Positions 48,662 through 64,000 of a stretch of DNA of 64,000 bases are shown piece after piece. Source of the DNA: Patescibacteria group bacterium (lineage in GTDB: Bacteria; Patescibacteriota; Minisyncoccia; Phycocordibacterales; Phycocordibacteraceae). The notes under the pieces were generated by a model, which had not been told where the DNA came from, made no database searches, and saw nothing but the letters and a program-made list of their open reading frames with translations. Within the stretch, counting starts at the first letter, position 1, and each line of letters begins with the position of its first letter. The translations under genes were made by a program, and so were the position numbers. The stretch spans positions 8,769 to 72,768 of the forward strand of contig JBBTSV010000009.1 in the NCBI GenBank assembly GCA_038064595.1. Direction: 5' to 3'.

Positions 48662-48688
48662 AAGTTAGGACACCCAGTGTCCTAACTT
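48662..48688. repeat. REP palindrome R2 (AAGTTAGGACAC-CCA-GTGTCCTAACTT)
   Basis: Perfect palindrome; contains the RAYT stop codon. Confidence 0.9.
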
Positions 48689-49329
48689 TCTATCTCATCC
48701 GCTCTTGATGCGAGGTCTGGATTTGAAATGATTTCCTCTATAGTTTGTTCATATTCGCTTGGCATTCCGAGCACAGGAGAAATCTCATTGGACTCGATAA
48801 TTGAAGGAAAATTATGATTACCAAAATAGTCGAGATGACTACTCCACCGATAATTTTGCAAAGCAGTCAGAGCACCTGATACATCCTGTACCTCTCCTTT
48901 TCTCCATTCGGGATGCGTATAGTCAAGCGGGTTCAAATGAATATAGAACGGGATGTAAAGGAAGTGGGCGTCTCGCTCAATGAGCACTTTACGGTATTTG
49001 CCTTGCCACAAGACACCCGATCGCTCGTATCGCCTATTAAAGTATTTTGTGTACCCCATATTCATCTTGTGCATGAACATTGAAATTCCGTTTTCGACCC
49101 TTTCTGATACCAAGAGATGATAGTGATTTTTCATCAGACAGAAAGCATGAATATCAATGAGCCGCTCGCGTTTACGGTGCTCGTCCTTCCGTTCATTCAA
49201 AATATAATTCGGTACGGGATGTACGTCATTGAGAACGAATAAATCATGGGTAAACCTCACTCTGTCTTGATCGTCCATAACAACGTCTCGTTTATCGACT
49301 CCGCGCCCAATCAGATGCCAAAAGTTCAT
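48682..49329 (-). CDS. REP-associated tyrosine transposase (RAYT; IS200/IS605 TnpA-like HUH-Y1)
   Basis: HUH motif in CLMKNHYHLLV and a downstream catalytic Tyr region (YTKYFNRRY), about 215 aa. Flanked on both sides by the same palindrome, which is the classic REP-RAYT arrangement. Confidence 0.8.
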   Translation of the reverse strand: MNFWHLIGRGVDKRDVVMDDQDRVRFTHDLFVLNDVHPVPNYILNERKDEHRKRERLIDIHAFCLMKNHYHLLVSERVENGISMFMHKMNMGYTKYFNRRYERSGVLWQGKYRKVLIERDAHFLYIPFYIHLNPLDYTHPEWRKGEVQDVSGALTALQNYRWSSHLDYFGNHNFPSIIESNEISPVLGMPSEYEQTIEEIISNPDLASRADEIES

Positions 49330-49750: not shown

Positions 49751-51967
49751 CTATTTCGCGACGGCGACGGCTTCGTCGAACTTGACGGAGAGAAGCTTAC
49801 TGACGCCGTCTGAACCCATGGTCACGCCGTAGAGGATACTGGTGCGGCTCATGGTCTCGCGGTTATGGGTGATTACAATCAGCTGACTCTTCTGCGCCAA
49901 GTTTTCGATCATGTCGCCGTAGCGGCGGCTGTTGGCCTCGTCGAGCGCCGCGTCGGTCTCGTCGAGGATGAGGAAGGGCGGCGGGTTGACCTGGCTCATG
50001 GCGAAGATGAGTGCGATCGAGGTGAGCGCGCGCTCACCACCTGAAAGCTGCATGAGTGAGCGCACCTTCTTCTTGGGTAGATTGACCGCAATCTCGATGC
50101 CCGCGCGCTCCTTCTTTTCTTCTGCTCCACTCTCGAGCTCGGTCTCATCGAGATCGTCAAGTACTTCCACTTCTTCAGGCTCTTCGAGCGTGAGGCGTGC
50201 GTTCCCGCCACCGAACATAAGCGCAAAATATTCACTAAAGGAGGCATTCACCTTTGCTAACCCTTCTGAGAAATGCTTAGCTAGTTCCGTATCCAAGTCG
50301 GTGATGAGTCCGCGCAGGCTCGCGGCAGACTTCGCGAGATCGTCGAGCTCACTCGCGAGGAATGTCTCGCGCTCTGACACTTCTTTATGCTCCTGACGAA
50401 TCTCTTCACCGGTACCCCCCGCTTCTTCAAGGCGGATCTTGAGGCGCTCAAGACCGCGCTGACGGTCTTCTTGTGCCTTACGCTCTTCTTCTGGCACACG
50501 CTCAAGCGGCGTGTACGAGAGCGCCGCAATGCCCGCGATCGCGAGTACCTCGCTCTTATTGCGCTCGAGCGTCTCCACAAGAAGCGTGAGTTCATATTCT
50601 CGTGCTTCATACTTGGCTATCATCCCTTCCTCATGCGCCTTTGACTGCGCTGCGTCGAGGATTCGACGGCGGATCTCACGCCCCGTTTCTTCAAGCACTA
50701 TCATCCCTTCTCTCGCGCGGGCGCGCGCAAGCTCGGCTTCTTCAAGAGCGCGAGAGGTTTGGGTAAATTTTTCTGCAAGCTCGGTCTGTTCACGTTCAAG
50801 CTTGTGTACCGCATCTTCTTCATCAGAGAGCCGCTCACTGTTTGGCGATCCATGCCGTGTAAAGAAAAAACGAATTGCACGAGTAATTGCGTCGAGTGCC
50901 GCACGTAACGACTCGACGGTCCCCCCTGCGTTCGCCGACTGCGTCTCCACTTCTGCGCGTAGCGACTCAAGCTCCTCACGCGCGACCTTGGCATATGGCT
51001 CACGCGCAACCGCTGCTGCACGACGCTTCACTTCAGCAAGTGCACCTTCAACACGACCCGTCTCCCGTGAGAGTGTGGCGCGCGCGCTTGAGAGCTCGGA
51101 GACCTCGCGCTCTGCTCTGCGCAGTACCTCAGTACGCGATATCGTCTCCTTGTCTGCCGACTTGGGGTCGGCGACCAGATCAAGCTCCGCGCTCACGGCC
51201 GCGAGTCGCTCCTTGGCATGCGCAAGCGCGACTGCTGCTGCCTGCTTCTCTCTCACTACATAGGCATCTTCGATAGAGAAGTATGTTTGTGCAAGACTCG
51301 TGAGCTCGCTCCGGAGCGCGTCTGAACGCTCAAGCTTCTTAACTTGACCTTCCAAGAAGCGCAGATGCGGTGCGAGCTCGCGACGGAGTGAGTTCACTTG
51401 GACAATGTTGTCCTCCGTCTTCTCGAGCTTACGCGTGGCCTCCTGCTTTTTAAACTCATACACTTTGAGCCCAAGCGCGTCCTCGAGCATCGCGCGGCGA
51501 TCTCGCGCTGACGCGAGCAGGATCCGGTCTGCCTCGCCTTGAGAAATAATGTGGTGACTCGTGTCGCCGATGTTCGCCCCCGCAAGCAACTCCTCGATAT
51601 CACGCAGTCGGACTCGAGAACCATTAATCGAATACTCGCTCGTCCCATCACGGAAGACAACGCGCTCGATCGCCACTTCGTCAAAATCGATTTTGAAAAT
51701 GCGTCGCGCATTATCGAAGACGACCACCACTGATGCACGGTTTGCGCGAGACGCCGTGTGGGAACCGTTGAAGATAAGATCCTCCGCGCGCTTGCCGCGC
51801 ATGCTCTTCATCGACTGCTCGCCAAGCGCAAAGCGAAATGCTTCGGCGACATTACTTTTGCCGGAACCATTCGGCCCTACGATCGCCGTAGTCGCACTCG
51901 AAAAGTCGAGTACCGTTTTCTTGGCAAAGGATTTAAACCCAACGATCTCAAGTCGCTTTAACATCAC
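49751..51967 (-). CDS. smc: SMC-like chromosome segregation ATPase, short form (738 aa)
   Basis: Walker A VGPNGSGKSN, coiled coils, ABC signature LSGGERALTSIAL, Walker B/D-loop ILDETDAALD. Confidence 0.75.
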   Translation of the reverse strand: MMLKRLEIVGFKSFAKKTVLDFSSATTAIVGPNGSGKSNVAEAFRFALGEQSMKSMRGKRAEDLIFNGSHTASRANRASVVVVFDNARRIFKIDFDEVAIERVVFRDGTSEYSINGSRVRLRDIEELLAGANIGDTSHHIISQGEADRILLASARDRRAMLEDALGLKVYEFKKQEATRKLEKTEDNIVQVNSLRRELAPHLRFLEGQVKKLERSDALRSELTSLAQTYFSIEDAYVVREKQAAAVALAHAKERLAAVSAELDLVADPKSADKETISRTEVLRRAEREVSELSSARATLSRETGRVEGALAEVKRRAAAVAREPYAKVAREELESLRAEVETQSANAGGTVESLRAALDAITRAIRFFFTRHGSPNSERLSDEEDAVHKLEREQTELAEKFTQTSRALEEAELARARAREGMIVLEETGREIRRRILDAAQSKAHEEGMIAKYEAREYELTLLVETLERNKSEVLAIAGIAALSYTPLERVPEEERKAQEDRQRGLERLKIRLEEAGGTGEEIRQEHKEVSERETFLASELDDLAKSAASLRGLITDLDTELAKHFSEGLAKVNASFSEYFALMFGGGNARLTLEEPEEVEVLDDLDETELESGAEEKKERAGIEIAVNLPKKKVRSLMQLSGGERALTSIALIFAMSQVNPPPFLILDETDAALDEANSRRYGDMIENLAQKSQLIVITHNRETMSRTSILYGVTMGSDGVSKLLSVKFDEAVAVAK

Positions 51968-51994: not shown

Positions 51995-52687
51995 CTACGC
52001 CCACGCAAGTGTGGCAAGTCCCGCCTCGGCAGCAGCCTGCTCGGCCTCCTGCTTGCTCTGCCCGTTGCCGCGCGCAATCTCCTTCTCACCGATAAAGACG
52101 CCGACCGTGAAGAGCTTGGCGTGGTCGGGACCCTCCTCTGAAATCGTTTCGTAGGTGGGAGTGATGCCCTTCTTCTCCTGCGCAAGCTCCTGAAAGCGGC
52201 TTTTCGCGTCTTGGTAAGAACGCAGGGCGATGATGTCATCAATTTTTCCAAAAAGATTCTTCGCGATAAATGATTCGGCCTCCCCAAAGCCTTGGTCAAG
52301 ATACAATGCGCCGATGATCGCCTCAAATGCATCAGCAAGGATCACGTCGCGCGCGCGGCCGGTATCTTTCGCTTCGCCCTTCGACAATAGAAGAAATTCA
52401 TTGATCCCAAGTGCTTGAGCGCTCTCGGCGAGCGAGACTGTGTTCACGAGCGCGGCACGGTAGCTGGTGAGCTCGCCCTCTGGCTTGGCCGGATATTTTT
52501 TATAGAGAAAGTCGGTCGCGGCGAGCTCCAAAACCGCGTCGCCGAGAAACTCGAGTCGCTCATTATGAGCTCCCGAATAATCGCGATGTTCGTTGAGATA
52601 GGAGCGGTGCGTCAGCGCCTCGACCAAGAGGGCGGGGTTGATAAATGTGAGACCGAGCTTCTCTGCACAGAGGGAGACGTCAGGCAT
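51995..52687 (-). CDS. rnc: Ribonuclease III
   Basis: NERLEFLGDAVLE RNase III signature; C-terminal dsRBD. Confidence 0.9.
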   Translation of the reverse strand: MPDVSLCAEKLGLTFINPALLVEALTHRSYLNEHRDYSGAHNERLEFLGDAVLELAATDFLYKKYPAKPEGELTSYRAALVNTVSLAESAQALGINEFLLLSKGEAKDTGRARDVILADAFEAIIGALYLDQGFGEAESFIAKNLFGKIDDIIALRSYQDAKSRFQELAQEKKGITPTYETISEEGPDHAKLFTVGVFIGEKEIARGNGQSKQEAEQAAAEAGLATLAWA

Positions 52688-52719: not shown

Positions 52720-53646
52720 TCAATGCCCCGACTTACTCGACTTATCGAGAAGCTTCTGAACTGCGTTCGTCACGATCGGCAGCATGTCGTCGTAAAAATT
52801 GAGATCAATGATGTCTTGAAGGCGGAACCATTTGGCGTCGTCGAGCCCTCCCTTGCCTTGCTGGAGCTGAAGCGGCTCAAAGGCTGAGTGTGCAAGAAAG
52901 TAGACCACACGCTTACGGTACTTCCCGCGCTCAGGGTGTGACGCGGTGTACTCATTTTCACCGATCTTCTCCTCGATTGTAATATCGAGCCCGATCTCCT
53001 CTTTAATTTCCCGCACCGTGCCCTGCTCAGCGGTCTCGTTCTCGATTGCCGGATTGTCGCCAATTTTACCCTTTGAGAGTGTCCAGTGGCCAAATACGTC
53101 GTGCACGAGCGCAAGATAAATCTGACCCTCGTGTTTAGCGTAGACCACCGCACCACCAAGCTGCTGCAAAGGAAGATCTTCATACCGCTTCTTCTGTTTG
53201 TTCTTTCCTTGATCTTCTTTGCCCGGTTCACCGAGCTCCTTATAGACGGCGCCAAGGACTCCGTTCACGAAGCGTCCGCTTGAATCACCACCGAAGGTTT
53301 TGGCGAGTTCGATCGCCTCGTTGATCGCCACCTTAGCCGGCACCTGGGTCCGATCGGCAAAGAGAAGCTCAAAGAGCCCCAGCCGGAGAATGTTGCGGTC
53401 GACGGGAGCAATACGGTCAAGTGGCCACTCGGGAGCGGCCTTCTCGATCACGAGATCAATGTCTTGTTGCTTTGCGAGCACGCCGTGAAGGAGGCCGTCC
53501 ACAAACGATCGATCAATATCATCGCCCCCAAACTCGACAATATTACGCTCGAGAATGGCTTTGGCTTCTTCAAGAGAAGCGTGCGTCGTATCCCACTCAA
53601 ACAGTGTTTGGAGAACAACGGAGCGTGCGAGATGTCGGTTCGCCAT
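52720..53646 (-). CDS. nusB: NusB-like antitermination domain fused to a Nudix hydrolase domain
   Basis: N-terminal about 150 aa carrying NusB signatures (ARSVVLQTLFEWD..., RIAPVDRNILRLGLFELLF, INEAIELAKTFGGDSSGRFVNGVL). C-terminal Nudix box GKIGDNPAIENETAEQGTVREIKEEIGLDI (Gx5Ex7REUxEExGU). Confidence 0.75.
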   Translation of the reverse strand: MANRHLARSVVLQTLFEWDTTHASLEEAKAILERNIVEFGGDDIDRSFVDGLLHGVLAKQQDIDLVIEKAAPEWPLDRIAPVDRNILRLGLFELLFADRTQVPAKVAINEAIELAKTFGGDSSGRFVNGVLGAVYKELGEPGKEDQGKNKQKKRYEDLPLQQLGGAVVYAKHEGQIYLALVHDVFGHWTLSKGKIGDNPAIENETAEQGTVREIKEEIGLDITIEEKIGENEYTASHPERGKYRKRVVYFLAHSAFEPLQLQQGKGGLDDAKWFRLQDIIDLNFYDDMLPIVTNAVQKLLDKSSKSGH

Positions 53647-53813
53647 GGAAAGATCTGTACTTGGAGTATATCAGTAAAAAGAGATGCGCAAACGCACAAT
53701 GTGTAAAAGCGCGCACCTTTGTTTATTGAGGGAGCTCCGCAGCGCTGGCGCGAGGCCGAGCAAATTTTCAGCAGAAAATTATGCGTCTCCCGAAAGAGAC
53801 AAAGGTGCGGCGC

Positions 53814-54170
53814 TTAAACCCCGCCGCCGAAACCTGAACGTGCCTTGGGGCGCCCACCGGTCGAGACCTTGCCCGTCACTCCCTTACCGAGCTTCGCCTC
53901 TGCGTTGGCGTGCTCATCGTGGGCATGATCGTGCGCATGCGGCGCGACCGGCGCCGTCGAAGGGCCCTTCACCTTCTCTTTGCCCGAGACCTTTGCCACG
54001 CGCGCCGGCGCGATCTGCTTGCCGCGATACATGCCGGTCGCTTCGTCGAGACGGTGCGGGAGACGGGTGTTACCGCTCTCCTTGTCCTTGACGACTTTCG
54101 TCGCCGTGAGGGCGTGGTGAGAGCGGCGGTTGTTGGTGTGGCCACGGGTGTGGCGCATGCGGATTGACAT
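53814..54170 (-). CDS. rpmF: 50S ribosomal protein bL32 with His-rich C-terminal extension
   Basis: NRRSHHALTATKVVKDKESGNTRLPHRLDEATGMYRGKQI matches the bL32 pattern (R.HDAL.A...D..SGE..L.HH....G.YRG..V). Start taken at the internal MSIRMRHTRG. C-terminal APHAHDHAHDEHANAE extension. Confidence 0.55.
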   Translation of the reverse strand: MSIRMRHTRGHTNNRRSHHALTATKVVKDKESGNTRLPHRLDEATGMYRGKQIAPARVAKVSGKEKVKGPSTAPVAPHAHDHAHDEHANAEAKLGKGVTGKVSTGGRPKARSGFGGGV

Positions 54171-54867
54171 ACGCCCTACCCTACCATGCCTGCGTAAAAT
54201 TGGAAAGCGCCGGCCCGTTGTGGTGGGTCGGCGCTGTCTCGGGCGGCGCTTGTGGCGCCTCACCCGTTTGGCGAAGCCTGCTGCTTCGCGGACTTCACGG
54301 CGTAGATGGCCGCGAAGACCGGATGCGGCTCGTGAATCGGCACCGGTGGGCGTTGCGGGAACTGCAGGGGTACCCCCTGTTTCTCGGGGGTAGGAGTTCT
54401 CGACTCCTTCTTTTTCATGTGTTTCTCCTAGGTTTTTTCCTTCTTTGCATCCAACCACCCGGCTGGACACAAGCTGATAGTATAGTCTTATTTGTATATG
54501 AAATCAAGGCTTTCTCGTGACGGGTGTGGAAATCAAAACGCCGCCCGGGTGTGGCGGCGTTTCGTGGGCGGCCCTTGTGGGGCCTAGCGACGAAGATCGC
54601 AGTGGAGTGCCTGCCCCGGGTTCACCGGCGCGTGGCGGATGCTGCAACAGACGGTCTCTCCGTGCGGCGTCGGGTCGATGACCCGAGCACCCACGCACGG
54701 CCGCCCATTGATCACGCACGACCCAAAGTCGTGCAGTTTCAGTAGGTCGACGGTCGCCGATAGCGTGCCGTTGTCGTTCTGCTGCGGAATCAGTAGTTCT
54801 GAACGCATATCCTCACTCCTCAGTGTTCCTGCCATTTTGTGATGGGACCCCATCACAAGCCTCCACA

Positions 54868-55467
54868 CTACCCCTGCCCCTTTGGCAAATCAAGGTGGAT
54901 GAAAGTGCGGCGGTGGATAGCTGATAGGCCGTATTTTTTAAGTGCTTCATAGTGCGCCGCGGTACCATACCCCTTGTGTTGCTCAAGGCCGTAGTGCGGA
55001 TACTCTTTTGCGAGCTCCACCATGAGTCTGTCGCGCGTCACCTTGGCCACTATTGAGGCGAGCGATATGAGCGGCACGAGCTCGTCGCCGTTAATAATCG
55101 TCTCTTGCGCATATTCACTCGGCGCGCGTAGCGCGCCGTCAAGTAGCACGTGCACCAACGCGCTGTCTGGTGCAAGTGCGCTCACGCCGCGCGCGAGCGC
55201 GCGGCGCACTGCAGTCGCTATCCCCTCCTCATCTATCGCTGCGGCACTCTCGATCTCAACACGAAACTGCGCGTCGCCTTTGGCGACGCGTTCTTCAAGC
55301 ATCGTAAAAAGTGCCTCGCGTTTCTTTTCTGAAAGCTTCTTCGAGTCCCGCACGCCCGGGAACTCCTTCGCGACGTCGAAGCCTTCTGGCACCATCACGA
55401 CCCCCACGGCCACCGGCCCTGCCAAGGGGCCCCTCCCCGCCTCATCTGCCCCCAGGAGAAACTGCAT
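54868..55467 (-). CDS. rnhB: Ribonuclease HII
   Basis: GADEAGRGPLAGPV N-terminal motif with the catalytic DE. Confidence 0.85.
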   Translation of the reverse strand: MQFLLGADEAGRGPLAGPVAVGVVMVPEGFDVAKEFPGVRDSKKLSEKKREALFTMLEERVAKGDAQFRVEIESAAAIDEEGIATAVRRALARGVSALAPDSALVHVLLDGALRAPSEYAQETIINGDELVPLISLASIVAKVTRDRLMVELAKEYPHYGLEQHKGYGTAAHYEALKKYGLSAIHRRTFIHLDLPKGQG

Positions 55468-55490: not shown

Positions 55491-58004
55491 ATGGCCGCGC
55501 GATTTATTCATCTCCATACTCACAGCCACTACTCCTTCCTCCAGGCGCTGCCAAAAATTGATGAGCTCGTGGAGAAGGCGGTCGCAGAGGGGATGGACGC
55601 CCTCGCACTCACCGACGCTGGCAACATGCACGGCGCGATTGATTTCTACAAGGCCGCCACCAAGGCCGGGATTAAACCGATCCTTGGCGTCGATGCGTAC
55701 CTCGCTCCCCGCTCGCGCCACGATCGCGACCCACAGGTGGACAGCAAACGCTCGCGCATCGTGCTCCTTGCAGAAAATAATACGGGCTACACCAATCTCC
55801 TCGCGCTCGTGACACAATCGTGGACGGAGGGGTTCTATGAGCGCCCGCGCCTCGATAAAGAGCTCTTACGCGCGCATGCCACAGGCGTGATCGCGGTGAT
55901 CCCCTCATTTGCAGGCGATGTCGCCCAACACCTGCGCGCCGGCGACCCTGCCGGCGCGGCCGCTGCCATCGCAGAATATAAAACTATATTTGGTGTGGAG
56001 AATCTCTTTCTTGAGATCACGCACCACCCCAAGGTCGCTGGACACGAGGTACTGATGAAAAAAATAGTCGCGCTCGCGAGAGAAACGAAAACCCCGCTCC
56101 TCGCCCAGCACGATGTCTACTACCTCTCTCCCGACGATCGCGCGGCGACCGAGATCATGCGTCGTATCCAGCACGGCGAGCGCGGGAGAAATGAAGATGA
56201 AGACTTCTCCTTTATTAGTGACGCAACAGCGCGTTCTTTTTTCAAAGACCTCCCCGACGCGATCGAGAACTCTGGAAGAATCGCCGACCGCTGCAGCCTC
56301 TCTTTTGAGCTCGGCAAGTGGACCTTTCCTGCAGTACCCGTCTCACCCGGATTTGCCGACCATAATGAAGAGCTACGCGCCAAAGCATTTGCCGGGATCA
56401 GAGCACGCAGCCTTGAGGAGACGAAGGAGGTCGTCGACCGCATCGAGTACGAGTTGAAAATTATTATCGACAAAGGGTTCGCGGTGTACTACCTGATCGT
56501 CGCCGACCTCCTCGGCTTTGCGCGCCGCTCCGGTATTCTCACTACCACGCGAGGCTCCGCCGCAGGGAGCCTTGTCGCCTATCTCATTGGTGTGACCAAC
56601 GTGAACCCGCTTTTCTATAAACTCCCTTTTGAACGCTTCCTCAACCCCGAGCGCCCCAAGGCGCCAGACATCGACATGGACATAGCCGACAATCGTCGTG
56701 ACGAGATGATCGCCTATACCAAGCAGAAGTACGGCGAGGATCACGTCGCTCAGATCGGCACCTTCGGCACTATGATGGCGCGTGCCGCGGTGCGCGATGT
56801 CTCACGGGCGCTCGGTCACGCGTACGCGACCGGTGACCGGATCGCTAAACTCATCCCGATGGGCTCACAGGGATTCCCGATGACCATTGATCACGCTCTC
56901 GATCTTGAACCAGATTTGAAAGTGCTCTACGACGAAGACGACGACGCGCACGAGATTCTTGACCTCGCGAAACGTATTGAGGGGTGTGTACGTCACGTCG
57001 GCGTCCATGCGGCCGGTGTGGTGGTCGCCCCGACCCCTCTCATTAATTGGACACCCATCCAGCCCGACCCAAAGGGCACCGGCAAGCTCATCACTCAGTA
57101 CGACATGTACTCGATCACCGACGAGTATGGCGGGGTCGGACTGCTCAAATTCGACTTCCTCGGGATTAAGAACTTGGCGATTCTCGCCGACGCTGTCTTG
57201 CGGGTGAAAGAGACTCGCGGGATCGATGTTGATATCGAAAATGTCCCCATCGACGACACCAAGACGTATGAAATGCTGGCGCGCGGCGAGACTGAGGGCA
57301 CGTTTCAGTTAAACGGCTCAGGTATGACGCGCTGGCTTAAAGAGCTTCGCCCTTCGACTATCCACGACATCAACGCCATGGTTGCGCTCTACCGACCCGG
57401 ACCGATGGAAACAATCCCTCAGTATATTGAGCGTAAACATAGCCCAAAACTCATCCGCTTCGTTGACCCACGGATGAAAGACTATCTTGATTTCTCGTAC
57501 GGCTTGCTCGTGTATCAAGATGACGTGCTCCTTACCGCGATCACTCTTGCGGGCTACTCCTGGCTTGAGGCCGACCAGCTCCGCAAAGCGATGGGCAAAA
57601 AAATTCCAAAAGTGATGCGGGCTGAAAAAGAGAAGCTCCTCAAGGGGTTTATAGAATATGGAAAGCTCACTCCTGAAAAAGCTGAGAAACTCTGGTCGCT
57701 CATCGAGCCCTTTGCTGCCTACGGCTTTAACAAGGCACACGCCGCAAGCTATGGTAAGGTCGCCTACCAGACCGCGTATATGAAGGCAAATTACCCTGTC
57801 GAATATCTCTGCGCACTTCTCACTGCCGAGTCGGGCGACACCGAACAGGTCGCTGTTTTTGTCGGGGAAGCGAAGCGTATGGGTATCTCCGTCCTCCCGC
57901 CAGACGTCAACGAGAGCGGGAGCGACTTCACGGTGGTGCAGCGTGACTTGGGGGTCGGACCCCCAAGTTGGGGGAGGCCATCCGTTTCGGTTTGTCTTCT
58001 ATAA
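55491..58004 (+). CDS. dnaE: DNA polymerase III alpha subunit, N-terminal 837 aa (PHP, palm and fingers); frame broken at a P1 palindrome
   Basis: PHP motif FIHLHTHSHYSFLQA; DnaE catalytic-region length. The ORF ends 37 nt after a P1 element and the downstream ORF continues the protein in another frame. Confidence 0.85.
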   Translation: MAARFIHLHTHSHYSFLQALPKIDELVEKAVAEGMDALALTDAGNMHGAIDFYKAATKAGIKPILGVDAYLAPRSRHDRDPQVDSKRSRIVLLAENNTGYTNLLALVTQSWTEGFYERPRLDKELLRAHATGVIAVIPSFAGDVAQHLRAGDPAGAAAAIAEYKTIFGVENLFLEITHHPKVAGHEVLMKKIVALARETKTPLLAQHDVYYLSPDDRAATEIMRRIQHGERGRNEDEDFSFISDATARSFFKDLPDAIENSGRIADRCSLSFELGKWTFPAVPVSPGFADHNEELRAKAFAGIRARSLEETKEVVDRIEYELKIIIDKGFAVYYLIVADLLGFARRSGILTTTRGSAAGSLVAYLIGVTNVNPLFYKLPFERFLNPERPKAPDIDMDIADNRRDEMIAYTKQKYGEDHVAQIGTFGTMMARAAVRDVSRALGHAYATGDRIAKLIPMGSQGFPMTIDHALDLEPDLKVLYDEDDDAHEILDLAKRIEGCVRHVGVHAAGVVVAPTPLINWTPIQPDPKGTGKLITQYDMYSITDEYGGVGLLKFDFLGIKNLAILADAVLRVKETRGIDVDIENVPIDDTKTYEMLARGETEGTFQLNGSGMTRWLKELRPSTIHDINAMVALYRPGPMETIPQYIERKHSPKLIRFVDPRMKDYLDFSYGLLVYQDDVLLTAITLAGYSWLEADQLRKAMGKKIPKVMRAEKEKLLKGFIEYGKLTPEKAEKLWSLIEPFAAYGFNKAHAASYGKVAYQTAYMKANYPVEYLCALLTAESGDTEQVAVFVGEAKRMGISVLPPDVNESGSDFTVVQRDLGVGPPSWGRPSVSVCLL
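57947..57967. repeat. P1 palindromic element copy d inside dnaE (net 20-nt insertion flanked by direct TTGGGGG repeats)
   Basis: gacTTGGGGGtcggacccccaagTTGGGGGaggcc. Confidence 0.9.
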
Positions 58005-58699
58005 AAAATTTCGGCGAGGGGATCTCGGAAGCGATTATCGCCGAGCGTAAAGCGCACGGCTCCTACGCCTCGCTCTCCGACTTTCTCGCGCGTGTGGGCT
58101 CCAAAAATTTAAATCGTAAATCGCTCGAATCACTGATTAGGTGTGGTGCGCTCGACTCTCTCACCACCGCCACCCACAAACGCGGAACGCTTCTTGAGAA
58201 CATTGAGACCTTGCTTTCCTTCCATCGCGAGGCGACTGCGATCGCTCCTCAAGATTCGCTCTTCGGCACACTCATGGCACCACCACCACTCACGCTCCCC
58301 GAGGGTGCTGCGACGTCACTCACCGACAAACTTATGTGGGAGAAGGAACTCCTCGGGATCTACGTGAGCGGGCATCCGCTCGACGCACACGCGGCTCTCA
58401 CCCAGAAAGCAGTCCTCTCTATAGCAAAGATTAAAGAAGAAATGCAGCCGGGACTCCTCCTGATTCTCCCGGTCCTCCTCACCACCGTGCGCAGTATCCT
58501 CACCAAGAGCGGAGAGAAGATGGTCTTTCTCACGGTTGAAGATAAGAGTGGGTCCATTGAGGCGGTCGTCTTCCCGAGGCTCCTGAAGGAACATGCGCGC
58601 ATTCTCACCCCGGGCGCGTGCCTCCTGATTAAAGGCAAGGTCTCGGTGCGCAACGGCGAGCCCTCGCTCGCTATCGAGGAGCTGAAGCTGCTTTCCTAG
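57968..58699 (+). CDS. dnaE: DNA polymerase III alpha subunit, C-terminal part (HhH, OB region), in a different frame from the N-terminal part
   Basis: Begins LGEAIRFGLSSIKNFGEGISEAII, the conserved DnaE IRFGL.AIK.(V/F)G segment that normally follows ...DFTVV... Confidence 0.8.
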   Translation: MGEAIRFGLSSIKNFGEGISEAIIAERKAHGSYASLSDFLARVGSKNLNRKSLESLIRCGALDSLTTATHKRGTLLENIETLLSFHREATAIAPQDSLFGTLMAPPPLTLPEGAATSLTDKLMWEKELLGIYVSGHPLDAHAALTQKAVLSIAKIKEEMQPGLLLILPVLLTTVRSILTKSGEKMVFLTVEDKSGSIEAVVFPRLLKEHARILTPGACLLIKGKVSVRNGEPSLAIEELKLLS

Positions 58700-60000: not shown

Positions 60001-63000
60001 TTAGGCTCCGAGGACGGCGAGGGCGCGGGCGAGGGCGAGCTTCGCACCGGTCACGCCCGTTGAATAACTTGAGTCAATCGCATTACTCAAAGAAGAGATA
60101 AGCTTCTCCAGGGTCGGAGTGTCGAGGCGAGCTGTGAGCCGCGCAATGTCGGGCGCACAGGGCGTGCCGTCAACACGCGCGCGGTACGCGTCATCGAGGA
60201 GACATGCGGTGGCCGAGAGAAGCTCTTCTGCAGCTCCTCCTCCCCGTACTTCTTGACGCAGCCCCGCGAAGACCGCCGTGCGATCACCCTCAATAAGCGC
60301 AGCGACAAAGCCGCGCACTGATGCCGGGGCCGCACTCTCTGGTACCAACGCTACTGCTGGGGTCTCCGCAACAACCGGCTCTACGTTCTCGTAGATCGGC
60401 TCTACATTTTCATATATTGGCTCAACATTCTGGTGTTCCTTCGCCGCCGCCGCGCTCGCATGACGACGAGAGAGACCTTTCACAATATCGTCGATCGAAA
60501 GCGATCCTCCTTCAGCAAACGACTTAAAGCCGTCATAGGTCGAGTAGGTACGAGGTGCGTCTGACGCGGGTGGAGGTGTGTGTTGAGGTTGAGGCGTTGG
60601 AGCCGGCGAAGCAGAGGCGGCAAGAGCCACGGTAGGAGCTGACTCAGATGAATTAAGAACGGTGTGAATCCGAGCACCAAACATGCGGAATTGGCGATTC
60701 GTAAAGGGTACTGCCCGGAAGAGAATAAGATAGGCAACCGCAAGCGCCCACATGATAAGCGCTAGCCAATAGAGCGTCGTTCCGAGGGGTCCGAGAGAGA
60801 GACCAGTCTGTGGAATCTGCGCGAGGTAGAGGTACGCAAGCGACTGTGCTTGTGGAAATACTGCAAGACTCACTGTGGGTGGCGGCGCACTGCCACCGCC
60901 ACCGCCACTAGGCGGCGGTTGCCCACAGTTTCCGCTACAACCACCGCCGCCACCCGACGAGTCAACAATGAGTGCTGTCGAACAGGTGACGGTTTGCCCG
61001 TTCGTCCCTGTGAACGTGCCCACATAGGTGTACGTCTGTGCGTTGGTCGGCGAAACTCTTGTCGAACTCGGGATAGTGGTGGTCGCGCCGATACCGTTAT
61101 CTATCGTTACACTTTGGACATTAGTGCCGCCCCACGAAAGGGTCGCGCTGCCACCGGTCGTATAGCGCGTTGGCGAGAGGCTCATCGTACAGGTCGGCGC
61201 GGGCGGAGTGGTCGTCACCGTGACAGTTGCCGAGCATACTGCTGATGCACCCGAGGCGCCGGTTACCGTACCGGTATACGTTGTCGTTGTAGTCGGAGTG
61301 GTCGATGTCGCACCTGACACTATCGAGGTCACTGCACCGATCCCTTGGTTAATCGAGAAGGCAGTAGCGTTGCTGGTATTCCACGAAAGAGTCGAGGTTG
61401 CACCCTGCTGAATTGCGGCCGGGGTCGCCGTGAGGGTACAGGTCGGTGCCGGAGGAGTAACTGAGACCGTCACCGTATCCGCACACGTCACAGTACCGCC
61501 CGGACCCGTTGCGGTGCCGCTATAGATGGTGGTCGCGGTTGGTGTGACCGAGCGAGAACCGCCCGCAAGAGGAGTCACTGATCCCACACCACGATCGATA
61601 GTGAATGAGGTGGTGTTGGTGGTGGTCCACGCGAGACTGGAGGCAGTGCCTTCGACAATCGTCTTGGGAGACGCGGTGAGGGTGCAGGTGGGGGCGGGGT
61701 GGTCAGTAACGGCCACGGTGTCAGCACAGGTATTGGTCAACCCATTTGCTCCGGTCACGGTGCCGGTGTACGTGGTCGTCACGCTCGGTGAGACCGAGCG
61801 GGAACCGCCAACAACGGGGGTCACAGAACCAATCCCCTGGCTGAGGGAGATGGATGTCGCATTGGTCGTCGTCCATGCAAGTGAAGAAGCTGCGCCGTTG
61901 AGTATGGATGCGGGAGACGCCGTGAGGGTACAGCTCGGGACCGGCACTGCCGTCACCGTCACGGTGGCGGTACATGGTGTGGAACCTCCCGGACCCGTTG
62001 CGGTGCCGCTATAGATGGTCGTCGTTGAGGGTGAGACCGAACGAGAGCCGGCAGCGACTGGCGTCACCGAACCAACGGCGTGATCAATGACAAATGAGGT
62101 GGCGTTGGTGGTAGTCCACTCAAGTGAAGATGCCGAACCGGTTTGAATGATGGAGGGAGATGCGGTGAGGGTGCAGGTGGGTGCGGGAGGGGGTGTCACC
62201 GTGATCGTTCTGCTGCAGGTATCTGAACCGCCTGCGCCCGTCACGGTGCCGGTGTACGTGGTCGTCACGCTCGGTGAGACCGAGCGAGAACCACCAATAA
62301 CGGGTGTCACGGAGCCAATCCCCTGATTGAGGGAGATGGATGTCGCATTTGCCGTGTCCCAGGAGAGGGTGGTTGAGGATCCGGCTTCAATGGAGAGCGC
62401 TGATGCAGTGAGTACGCACGTGGGAGGAGGAGGTGGAGGAAGTGGCGTCACCGTCACCGTATCCGCACACGTCACAGTACCGCCCGGACCCGTTGCGGTG
62501 CCGCTATAGATGGTGGTCGCGGTTGGTGTGACCGAGCGAGAACCGCCCGCAAGAGGAGTCACTGATCCCACACCACGATCGATAGTGAATGAGGTGGTGT
62601 TGGTGGTGGTCCACGCGAGACTGGAGGCAGTGCCTTCGACAATCGTCTTGGGAGACGCGGTGAGGGTGCAGGTGGGGGCGGGGTGGTCAGTAACGGCCAC
62701 GGTGTCAGCACAGGTATTGGTCAACCCATTTGCTCCGGTCACGGTGCCGGTGTACGTGGTCGTCACGCTCGGTGAGACCGAGCGGGAACCGCCAACAACG
62801 GGGGTCACAGAACCAATCCCCTGGCTGAGGGAGATGGATGTCGCATTGGTCGTCGTCCATGCAAGTGAAGAAGCTGCGCCGTTGAGTATGGATGCGGGAG
62901 ACGCCGTGAGGGTACAGCTCGGGACCGGCACTGCCGTCACCGTCACGGTGGCGGTACATGGTGTGGAACCTCCCGGACCCGTTGCGGTGCCGCTATAGAT

Positions 63001-64000
63001 GGTCGTCGTTGAGGGTGAGACCGAACGAGAGCCGGCAGCGACTGGCGTCACCGAACCAACGGCGTGATCAATGACAAATGAGGTGGCGTTGGTGGTAGTC
63101 CACTCAAGTGAAGATGCCGAACCGGTTTGAATGATGGAGGGAGATGCGGTGAGGGTGCAGGTGGGTGCGGGAGGGGGTGTCACCGTGATCGTTCTGCTGC
63201 AGGTATCTGAACCGCCTGCGCCCGTCACGGTGCCGGTGTACGTGGTCGTCACGCTCGGTGAGACCGAGCGAGAACCACCAATAACGGGTGTCACGGAGCC
63301 AATCCCCTGATTGAGGGAGATGGATGTCGCATTTGCCGTGTCCCAGGAGAGGGTGGTTGAGGATCCGGCTTCAATGGAGAGCGCTGAGGCGTTCAGCACA
63401 CAGGTGGGTGCGGGAGCGGGCGGAGGCGGGGCCGTCACGGTGATCGTTGCGACGCAAGAATTTGAACCGAAAGCGCCGACCGCGGTACCCGTGTAGGTGG
63501 TCGTAACGGTGGGCGAAACCGTTTGTGAACCGGATCCCGTGAGAAAGAGACCGACTATTTTATCGATAAAGAAGAGGGTGGAGTTGGTCGTCGTCCACGA
63601 GAGCACAGCGCTCGATCCCTCCTCTATGGTCGTAGGAGATGCGGTAAACGTACAGGACGGATCCGGAGAAGGAAACGCGCACCCGCCAAGGTAGGTAACG
63701 TCCCAGGTGCAGCTGTTGCGCGTCCATGACGCCATACCAACGGTAGCGCCAGCAGGGATACCGTACTGACCAGCCCAGTCGGCGCAGGCGACTGGATCTT
63801 GTGGAATCTCGTTTGGTACGCACGCCGGAGGTGGCTCGGTGCAGCCGCCCGTGTACGTTACGTCCCAGGTGCAGCTATTGCGCGTCCAAGAAGCCATGCC
63901 GACCGTGGCGTTCGCTGGGATACCGTACTGACCAGCCCAGTCGGAACACGCAACTGGCTCTTGTGTGATTTCAGTTGGTACGCACGCCGGAGGTGGCTCG
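60001..64000 (-). CDS. Giant cell-surface protein with tandem Ig-like repeats, 5'-partial (over 1330 aa in window)
   Basis: At least 12 repeats of about 95 aa (TCTLTASP..I..G.SS.L.WTTTNATS..I..G.GSVTP..GGSRSVSP..TTTY.GT.TG.GG...C..T.TVT). Three N-terminal MASWTRNSCTWDVTY modules. Gly-rich linker, one transmembrane helix (LGPLGTTLYWLALIMWALAVAYLILF), and a roughly 340-aa cytoplasmic tail containing an NVEPIYE x3 repeat. The ORF is open at the window end. Confidence 0.85.
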   Translation of the reverse strand, partial: EPPPACVPTEITQEPVACSDWAGQYGIPANATVGMASWTRNSCTWDVTYTGGCTEPPPACVPNEIPQDPVACADWAGQYGIPAGATVGMASWTRNSCTWDVTYLGGCAFPSPDPSCTFTASPTTIEEGSSAVLSWTTTNSTLFFIDKIVGLFLTGSGSQTVSPTVTTTYTGTAVGAFGSNSCVATITVTAPPPPAPAPTCVLNASALSIEAGSSTTLSWDTANATSISLNQGIGSVTPVIGGSRSVSPSVTTTYTGTVTGAGGSDTCSRTITVTPPPAPTCTLTASPSIIQTGSASSLEWTTTNATSFVIDHAVGSVTPVAAGSRSVSPSTTTIYSGTATGPGGSTPCTATVTVTAVPVPSCTLTASPASILNGAASSLAWTTTNATSISLSQGIGSVTPVVGGSRSVSPSVTTTYTGTVTGANGLTNTCADTVAVTDHPAPTCTLTASPKTIVEGTASSLAWTTTNTTSFTIDRGVGSVTPLAGGSRSVTPTATTIYSGTATGPGGTVTCADTVTVTPLPPPPPPTCVLTASALSIEAGSSTTLSWDTANATSISLNQGIGSVTPVIGGSRSVSPSVTTTYTGTVTGAGGSDTCSRTITVTPPPAPTCTLTASPSIIQTGSASSLEWTTTNATSFVIDHAVGSVTPVAAGSRSVSPSTTTIYSGTATGPGGSTPCTATVTVTAVPVPSCTLTASPASILNGAASSLAWTTTNATSISLSQGIGSVTPVVGGSRSVSPSVTTTYTGTVTGANGLTNTCADTVAVTDHPAPTCTLTASPKTIVEGTASSLAWTTTNTTSFTIDRGVGSVTPLAGGSRSVTPTATTIYSGTATGPGGTVTCADTVTVSVTPPAPTCTLTATPAAIQQGATSTLSWNTSNATAFSINQGIGAVTSIVSGATSTTPTTTTTYTGTVTGASGASAVCSATVTVTTTPPAPTCTMSLSPTRYTTGGSATLSWGGTNVQSVTIDNGIGATTTIPSSTRVSPTNAQTYTYVGTFTGTNGQTVTCSTALIVDSSGGGGGCSGNCGQPPPSGGGGGSAPPPTVSLAVFPQAQSLAYLYLAQIPQTGLSLGPLGTTLYWLALIMWALAVAYLILFRAVPFTNRQFRMFGARIHTVLNSSESAPTVALAASASPAPTPQPQHTPPPASDAPRTYSTYDGFKSFAEGGSLSIDDIVKGLSRRHASAAAAKEHQNVEPIYENVEPIYENVEPVVAETPAVALVPESAAPASVRGFVAALIEGDRTAVFAGLRQEVRGGGAAEELLSATACLLDDAYRARVDGTPCAPDIARLTARLDTPTLEKLISSLSNAIDSSYSTGVTGAKLALARALAVLGA
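61468..63435. repeat. Perfect tandem duplication (2 x 984 bp, identical over about 930 bp) inside the giant surface-protein gene
   Basis: 61468-62400 is identical to 62452-63384; the encoded 162-aa and 84-aa alternative-frame ORFs are also identical. Confidence 0.9.

Follow-up and report, generated by a model that had tools for sequence, protein, structure and literature searches.

A NusB antitermination factor fused to a Nudix-fold domain, with a frequently degenerate catalytic box, is widespread in Patescibacteria

Antitermination of rRNA transcription in bacteria relies on NusB, a universal core factor that normally consists of one domain. In a 64,000-nt stretch of a contig from a Patescibacteria group bacterium (hereafter the window), however, one open reading frame (ORF) encodes a NusB followed by a domain with the fold of Nudix hydrolases; we refer to this gene as nusB::nudix and to its product as NusB::Nudix. 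This raises the questions of whether the fusion is real or results from an error, how widely it occurs, and what a nucleotide-hydrolase fold might do when permanently attached to an antitermination factor.

The reading frame of nusB::nudix runs from its ATG to its stop codon without any internal stop or frameshift, including across the junction between both halves, as the sequence-only reading of this DNA had proposed. The Pfam models PF01029 (NusB) and PF00293 (NUDIX) match amino acids 7–136 (E = 2e-35; 122.4 bits vs a cut-off of 23.1) and 174–283 (E = 2e-10; 41 bits vs a cut-off of 21), respectively, and the score of 126.5 bits with TIGR01951, the NusB equivalog model of NCBIfam, exceeds the cut-off of 88.35. 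The two-domain reading of the ORF is correct, far beyond chance. Likewise, AlphaFold2 predicted two confident domains joined by a linker with a predicted local distance difference test score (pLDDT) below 50 at amino acids 140–152; the predicted template modelling score of the whole model was 0.50, and it contained no fixed packing or confident interface between the domains. The linker begins right after helix alpha7 of the NusB half, which is the BoxA-binding helix, and the protein ends only some 8 amino acids past the C-terminal helix of the Nudix fold.

An obvious objection is that an error in sequencing or assembly joined adjacent nusB and Nudix genes where they meet, and the assembly is indeed not free of errors, because dnaE in the same window is apparently frameshifted. 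We scanned genomes, taking one per GTDB species, and retrieved 570 relatives, of which the best 80 were taken further. These 80, from metagenome-assembled genomes (MAGs) of Paceibacterota/Parcubacteria and of Kaiser-, Nomura- and Zambryskibacteria, show 51–83% identity with the window protein, and the match spans nearly the whole protein in all of them. A complete ORF of 296–333 amino acids was present in 76 of the 80 loci, the remaining four being cut by a contig end (three) or by a gap of N (one). Hundreds of metagenome clusters (NCBI, JGI, ENA and Logan assemblies) also contain this ORF without interruption, and the motif GEPGK of the junction linker is itself conserved in alignments of the relatives. 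The comparative data thus already refute the objection, and we consider the chance of such an artefact to be practically nil.

Indeed, the search for proteins combining NusB and NUDIX domains that the sequence-only reading had suggested gave abundant examples. The best 120 database clusters, which come from the same four sources, contain proteins of 297–333 amino acids with 79–100% identity, including a 100% identical Patescibacteria MAG protein from NCBI annotated as 'transcription antitermination factor NusB' (P0001). Both Pfam domains were found in 119 of these clusters, and the sole exception (P0089) lacks only the NUDIX match. At a larger distance, 142 representatives clustered at 50% identity score E ≤ 1e-30, and about 50 of them are full-length two-domain proteins with identities down to 33%. 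Overall, the fusion is stable from about 88% to about 30% identity and no fission was observed. Judging from these sequences, the fusion is not rare, and NusB regularly takes this form in a large clade of Patescibacteria of the Paceibacteria type. Many of the MAGs with this type of NusB::Nudix (e.g. L002, L016, L017 and L022–L025) are titled 'uncultured Candidatus Saccharibacteria bacterium', a label that looks generic or incorrect.

Several apparent departures from the two-domain form were discarded. Entries resembling standalone Nudix relatives or split genes (P0181, P0223, P0232 and others) provided no evidence for natural fission; the Nudix-only entry that was checked, P0223, lies on a contig of 992 bp, with its start at base 23, and is a fragment of a fusion. 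A seemingly interrupted gene (L050) corresponds to a run of N in the scaffold. Finally, a candidate triple fusion of NusB, Nudix and RNase III (L056) contains a stop codon (ERK*) 8 nt before the start of rnc.

The N-terminal half was described by the sequence-only reading as a canonical NusB, and its identity as NusB was confirmed by the scores over the cut-offs of TIGR01951 and PF01029 and by its fold. Comparison with solved NusB proteins in the PDB gave E-values from 1e-15 to 9e-19, and the AlphaFold2 model shows helices over amino acids 2–138, with pLDDT mostly of 77–94 per 10-residue block. In Foldseek searches, the model matched the Aquifex NusB of the NusB-NusE-BoxA complex (3r2c/3r2d) with a template modelling (TM) score of 0.89 and a root mean square deviation of 1.8 Å, as well as 1tzv and 1eyv. 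In that complex, F122 stacks on U8 of BoxA and E81 of the Aquifex protein reads U8, while Y18 of E. coli NusB is in the interface with NusE (PMC3177189). Alignment with the PDB proteins places F126 of NusB::Nudix at the position of F122 of both the Aquifex and E. coli proteins, and this phenylalanine is invariant even in members with 30% identity; D83 and F16 occupy the positions of Aquifex E81 and E. coli Y18, respectively, both as conservative changes. We thus take the N-terminal half to be a functional NusB that would bind S10 and BoxA.

The similarity to described NusB proteins (TIGR01951/PF01029; Aquifex aeolicus 3R2C, E. coli 3D3B) includes the all-helical fold and the signature VAINEAIELAK..FG..S..FVNGVL. 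Unlike these proteins, which consist of a single domain of about 130–150 amino acids, NusB::Nudix has a Lys-rich linker after its NusB part and then about 140 amino acids of Nudix fold, and its gene has rpmF and rnc-smc as neighbours. To our knowledge, RsmB/Sun is the only well-known architecture joining a NusB-type RNA-binding domain to a catalytic domain that acts on rRNA. RsmB/Sun also has a NusB-type domain fused to an enzyme-fold domain, in its case an m5C methyltransferase, but its NusB-like domain is a paralogue and the one described here is most likely the NusB orthologue. An identity as RsmB/Sun was rejected; the corresponding models stay far below their cut-offs (59.5 bits vs 319; at most 59.5 bits against cut-offs of 269–540), they match over the NusB part only, and there is no methyltransferase domain. 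The equivalog score, the fold match to the NusB-NusE-BoxA structure, the retention of the BoxA-stacking phenylalanine and the position after rpmF together indicate that nusB::nudix is probably the resident NusB orthologue of a Paceibacteria-type genome. No other NusB- or Nudix-like ORF exists within the 64 kb window.

For the C-terminal half, the AlphaFold2 model shows strands and helices over amino acids 160–306 in the alpha/beta/alpha arrangement of the Nudix fold, and Foldseek matched it to more than 30 Nudix structures with a probability of 1.00. The top match in the PDB was the ADP-ribose-bound Nudix domain of NrtR (3gz8), followed by the Aquifex diadenosine tetraphosphate (Ap4A) hydrolase aq_158 (3i7u; TM 0.85–0.89); the matches also included Rv2985, a 'Nudix diadenosine polyphosphatase' (9cxx), the Ap4A hydrolase of C. 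elegans (1ktg), the Ap6A hydrolase Ndx1 from Thermus (1vc8) and CT771 bound to Ap4A products (4mpo). A family profile (A2), built from 44 Nudix halves and run against PDB sequences, retrieved the same Aquifex hydrolase (3i7u; E = 6.9e-11), CT771 (4ilq; 2.6e-9), Ndx1 (1vc8; 2.6e-9), Rv2985 (9cxx; 1.7e-8) and the C. elegans and human Ap4A hydrolases (2e-7 to 8e-7; 2.2e-7 for 1kt9 and 4.3e-7 for 3u53), followed by Dcp2 (2e-6) and NrtR (6e-6). Because the best profile and fold matches are diadenosine-polyphosphate (ApnA) hydrolases, and the models for RppH, MutT, NudC and ADPRase are far below their NCBIfam cut-offs, the Nudix half descends from the ApnA hydrolase branch. Assignments to those four enzymes were accordingly discarded; for instance, the RppH model NF001936 yields 15.6 bits against a cut-off of 118, and the structure of BdRppH (3ees) ranks only 44th in Foldseek. 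Identity as NrtR was also rejected, since there is no winged helix-turn-helix after the Nudix domain and the likeness is confined to this domain.

We aligned the C. elegans Ap4A hydrolase, whose sequence was checked against 1kt9, to the family profile with hmmalign. Its residues H31, W32 and K36 correspond to H187, W188 and K192 of NusB::Nudix; E43, R51, E52, E55 and E56 to E204, R212, E213, E216 and E217; and K81, K83, W109 and Y121 to K242, K245, W273 and Y285. We take the lysines K36, K81 and K83 and the tyrosine Y121 of the Ap4A hydrolase to line its substrate site. Thus, NusB::Nudix shares with ApnA hydrolases (3I7U, 1VC8, 4MPO, 9CXX, 1KTG and 3U53) an H-W-T/S-x-x-K-G motif before the Nudix box, the pair K242/K245 after beta-strand 5, W273 and the C-terminal tyrosine Y285, together with, in the window protein, the catalytic set of glutamates and arginine (E/R/E/E/E). 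It differs from them in its low identity (about 22–26%), in the fusion to NusB and, within the clade of the window, in a five-residue insertion in the loop of the box.

The sequence-only reading had reported a complete Nudix box, GX5EX7REUXEEXGU, and this held for the residues and not for their spacing. All the catalytic and signature residues are present, and the box reads G193-KIGD-NPAIE-N-E204-TAEQGTV-R212-E213-I-K-E216-E217-I-G219-L220. The strict pattern is not matched because the insertion NPAIE widens the spacing between the glycine and the first glutamate, so that it is G193-x10-E204. Among the 77 aligned species-level orthologues that we used for all counts of residues and box states, 65 lack the insertion and show the canonical GX5E spacing. 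Insertions of five residues with the consensus GD-x-P-x-[IVT]-x-x-E-[TS] occur in the clade of the window (L002–L005 and L018) and also in L009, L010, L012, L014 and L027, groups that are not adjacent on a rough neighbour-joining (NJ) tree. They almost always co-occur with an intact catalytic box, with the exception of L009 (ERGEE).

Across the family, the catalytic box is, by these alignments, the least conserved part of the Nudix domain. The five residues E204, R212, E213, E216 and E217 are all kept in 32 orthologues, and at least one of them has been lost in the other 45; E213 is present in no more than 37 and has given way to K, V, A, I or other residues in the rest. The box thus appears degenerate in most members of the family, unlike in characterised ApnA hydrolases. 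Meanwhile, H182, D183, F185, G186, W188, K192, Y233, K242, K245, G267, L268, W273, F274 and Y285 vary little or not at all, both in the group with an intact box and in the group with a degenerate one, and the motif VHDxFGxWTLSKG around the box stays invariant across the family. The mean pairwise identity of the domain is also similar in the two groups (0.60 with an intact box, 0.54 with a degenerate one).

Changes in the state of the box have been frequent, with at least 18 of them on the NJ tree, and are found close to the window protein. Its sister clade carries A, V or P at position 204 and I or V at position 213, and relatives with 81–82% identity (P0067 and P0089) carry RK..NE or RK..SE substitutions. 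The most distant fusions mostly have no recognisable box (e.g. ALKEVIQKELG or IIQILNNKFA), and W188, K192, L251, W273 and Y285 persist. Since the box loses residues in lineages that retain the domain, its fusion to NusB and the motifs not involved in catalysis, the Nudix domain probably has a conserved role that does not need hydrolysis; most likely, this role is the binding of an adenine polyphosphate, of an RNA 5′ end or of a partner at the BoxA complex. Conversely, the exact set of five catalytic residues is unlikely to be regained once lost, and its survival in scattered and deeply diverged lineages, including that of the window, suggests that catalysis is still under selection there. The proposal of the sequence-only reading that the fusion couples antitermination to hydrolysis is therefore weakened for the family by the loss of at least one catalytic residue in 45 of the 77 orthologues and of any recognisable box in the majority of distant members, and it stays plausible for the window protein, which might hydrolyse ApnA or cap-like substrates.

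The genomic context of the fusion is also highly conserved. Comparisons by tblastn with the neighbouring genes showed the order rnhB-rpmF-nusB::nudix-rnc-smc in essentially all of the 80 loci that reach far enough, and the same order surrounds a 35%-identical member (P0184) on a 930 kb contig, whose C-terminal half is so diverged that only PF01029 was recorded. In relatives with a standalone NusB of 144–157 amino acids, the gene is also located directly after rpmF, so the fused gene occupies the ancestral position of nusB. Two loci with a standalone nusB lacking the Nudix part, L084 and L086, show this arrangement; in L084, a gene for an HU-like DNA-binding protein, and not rnc, lies downstream.

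How these observations translate into function is best approached from the position of the tether. As in other bacteria, the NusB half would bind BoxA of the nascent rRNA leader together with S10, and would thereby park the Nudix-fold domain at the transcription/antitermination complex, beside the leader RNA, on a Lys-rich tether of about 23 amino acids that starts where the BoxA-binding helix alpha7 ends. The property conserved in the whole family would then be binding by the old ApnA pocket, and not hydrolysis, with an adenine-nucleotide polyphosphate as the putative ligand, most likely a 5′-ppp-N or Np4-capped leader end or the flanking RNA. In the lineage of the window, which has kept all the catalytic glutamates, the domain probably has pyrophosphohydrolase activity as well, and might for instance convert the leader's 5′ end or remove ApnA in its vicinity; in the majority of the other lineages it would act as a catalytically impaired binding module. 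We favour this explanation tentatively, as a proposal with somewhat less than an even chance of being right, in which the pocket binds an adenine-polyphosphate moiety of, or near, the leader RNA and, in lineages with an intact box, also hydrolyses it. The constant pairing of the gene with rnc fits a module devoted to the handling of the rRNA leader. In E. coli, presentation of the RNase III stem has been ascribed to the antitermination complex, of which SuhB is also a part (PMC6614801). Several points weigh against our proposal, however. The ligand is deduced solely from the homology of the pocket residues to those taken to line the Ap4A hydrolase site; the alignment of Y233 with F75/Y76 of the C. 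elegans enzyme is ambiguous, as is the equivalent of Y76; the count of losses is derived from a rough NJ tree, from which the box region was left out; and the intact box of scattered lineages, over a deep divergence, fits equally well a plain housekeeping enzyme riding on NusB.

Such an enzyme, the cell's ApnA or nucleotide-sanitising hydrolase fused to a constitutive neighbour in a streamlined genome and with no tie to antitermination, would account for the intact box of the window protein and of 32 of the 77 species, for the closeness to ordinary ApnA hydrolases and for the flexible linker between apparently independent domains. It does not readily explain why the fusion and the domain are under strong constraint in the 45 species that have lost catalytic residues and in the majority of distant members, which have lost them too, nor the stability of the fusion without fission over the whole range of identities, and we regard it as unlikely. 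Similarly improbable, in our opinion, is that the domain senses a free ligand as in NrtR, binding Ap4A/ApnA, ADP-ribose or an alarmone and modulating the assembly of NusB, S10 and BoxA, which would tie rRNA synthesis to nucleotide or stress status. The retention of pocket residues after the loss of catalytic ones is what would be expected of an enzyme that has turned into a sensor, the ADP-ribose-bound domain of NrtR is the top structural match and NrtR was also found by the family profile, and Nudix domains that act in transcriptional regulation without enzymatic activity are a recognised class (PMC5389931). The NrtR of Shewanella oneidensis (3GZ5/3GZ6/3GZ8) indeed joins a Nudix-fold domain, with a ligand-binding and not a catalytic role, to a transcription factor; however, it does so through a winged-helix DNA-binding domain and represses NAD genes, whereas the partner here is an RNA-binding elongation/antitermination factor. 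A fully catalytic box, as kept in many lineages, would be needless for a pure sensor and, as a mild argument, the disordered linker of about 23 residues without a confident interface offers no obvious allosteric route; since the linker is flexible and lacks a fixed docking, a tethered domain that reaches and binds fits better than an allosteric sensor.

SuhB provides the model for another alternative. This protein has an enzyme fold, that of inositol monophosphatases, and is recruited to the rRNA antitermination complex in a manner dependent on BoxA and NusB, its activity not being required (PMC6614801). By analogy, the Nudix domain could be a protein scaffold in cis that contacts NusA, S4, RNA polymerase or RNase III, with its conserved residues forming an interface or the core of the fold. 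In the E. coli rrnTAC, SuhB likewise works with NusB and BoxA on the rRNA leader as an enzyme-fold protein, an analogy that is only functional and hypothetical, but it is a separate polypeptide of unrelated fold. The dispensability of the catalytic residues across the family, the tight and universal linkage of the gene to rnc and the flexible tether are all in agreement with a scaffold. Nevertheless, the invariant K192, K242, K245 and Y285 coincide with positions taken to line the ApnA hydrolase substrate site, which is easier to understand as ligand binding; this argument is mild, and we consider a scaffold quite unlikely.

Our literature search, at the level of titles and abstracts, retrieved no paper with NusB and Nudix together or on a NusB-Nudix architecture, and the full text of the main review of the Nudix clan never mentions NusB. 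The sequence-only reading had considered this not to be a standard architecture; this agrees with the lack of papers found, and is at odds with its being the regular NusB of a large clade, whose sequences are already public and labelled only as 'NusB'. NusB::Nudix thus emerges as a real and widespread form of a core transcription factor that has apparently gone undescribed, and the family clearly bears the marks of a pseudoenzyme. In a whole class of ultra-small, uncultivated bacteria with reduced genomes, a nucleotide-binding enzyme fold has been permanently attached to NusB. That its catalytic residues are lost repeatedly while the domain stays conserved suggests that it serves the rRNA leader in some accessory way not yet described, for instance in 5′-end handling, nucleotide sensing or scaffolding. 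It is possible, albeit rather doubtful, that the Nudix domain is a new cis-attached part of the rRNA antitermination and processing machinery of Patescibacteria, in which the former ApnA pocket would read, and in some lineages trim, a 5′-polyphosphate or Np4-capped leader end or a free adenine-polyphosphate signal and so couple both the transcription of rRNA and its processing by RNase III to nucleotide status. If true, such a coupling would exist in organisms with minimal regulatory repertoires. The mechanism is a proposal, and the finding does not resolve any long-standing question; yet the family offers a natural series of variants, active or inactive as predicted from the box, for the study of how an enzyme turns into a binding module, and it flags as two-domain proteins thousands of database entries labelled only 'NusB'.

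The coordinates of the gene, its parts and its neighbours are collected in the following table.

Table. Position of nusB::nudix, its domains and nearby features in the window
Feature	Position	Strand	Remarks
nusB::nudix, whole ORF	52720..53646	-	308 aa + stop codon; uninterrupted
NusB domain, aa 1–139	53230..53646	-	All-helical; models over cut-off, predicted helices, Foldseek
Linker, aa 140–162	53161..53229	-	EPGKEDQGKNKQKKRYEDLPLQQ; Lys-rich, predicted disordered
Nudix-fold domain, aa 163–300	52747..53160	-	ApnA-hydrolase-like; PF00293, Foldseek, family profile vs PDB
Nudix box, aa 193–220	52987..53070	-	GKIGDNPAIENETAEQGTVREIKEEIGL; G193, E204, R212, E213, E216, E217 and G219 all present
Insertion NPAIE, aa 198–202	53041..53055	-	5 aa in the G-E loop of the Nudix box; bases read directly from the sequence
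rnhB (RNase HII)	54868..55467	-	Upstream member of the conserved cluster
rpmF (ribosomal protein L32)	53814..54170	-	PF01783; upstream neighbour
Terminator-like hairpin with T-rich tail	53801-53784	-	rpmF-nusB spacer
Terminator-like hairpin with T-rich tail	53698-53685	-	rpmF-nusB spacer
rnc (RNase III)	51995..52687	-	Ribonuclease_3 + dsrm; 32 bp downstream of nusB::nudix
Short SMC-like ATPase	49751..51967	-	27 bp past rnc
ORF with IS200-like Y1 transposase domain	48682..49329	-	215 aa; PF01797
dnaE, total	55491..58699	+	In two overlapping ORFs
dnaE, first ORF	55491..58004	+	PHP, pol III alpha, finger
dnaE, second ORF	57968..58699	+	HHH_6, OB fold
ORF without Pfam match at E ≤ 1e-5	60001..63897	-	1298 aa

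The rpmF gene ends 167 bp upstream of nusB::nudix. Two terminator-like hairpins with T-rich tails can be drawn in this spacer (53684..53801), where the number of such sites in the region is not above the shuffled expectation; likewise, a scan for promoters and terminators around the cluster gave counts not above that expectation, and an Rfam scan of the window for rRNA, leader and other RNA elements retrieved nothing at gathering thresholds. The L32 protein encoded by rpmF has a C-terminal tail of about 65 amino acids (APHAHDHAHDEHANAEAKLGKG ... GRPKARSGFGGGV) in which His, Ala, Lys and Gly abound; the Cys residues of the usual zinc knuckle were not seen. The mechanically listed ORF of rpmF, which extends to a GTG at 54470, is probably over-extended at its N-terminus.

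The SMC-like gene downstream of rnc encodes a protein of 738 amino acids, over whose residues 2–723 the SMC_N model is split, with no hinge-domain match reported. Its orthologue in L082 has 700 amino acids, and a short SMC/RecN-like ATPase is kept downstream of rnc in the clade. The division of dnaE into two ORFs implies a frameshift near 57970–58004, due either to an assembly or sequencing error or to a real disruption; the dnaE located beside the same cluster in L082 and L083 is a single gene of 1030 amino acids. The genes rpoB, rpoC, dnaG and rpoD are also in the window, as is the long ORF without a Pfam match listed in the table. Just beyond the conserved cluster, the ORF with the IS200-like Y1 transposase domain matches PF01797 with E = 5e-9.

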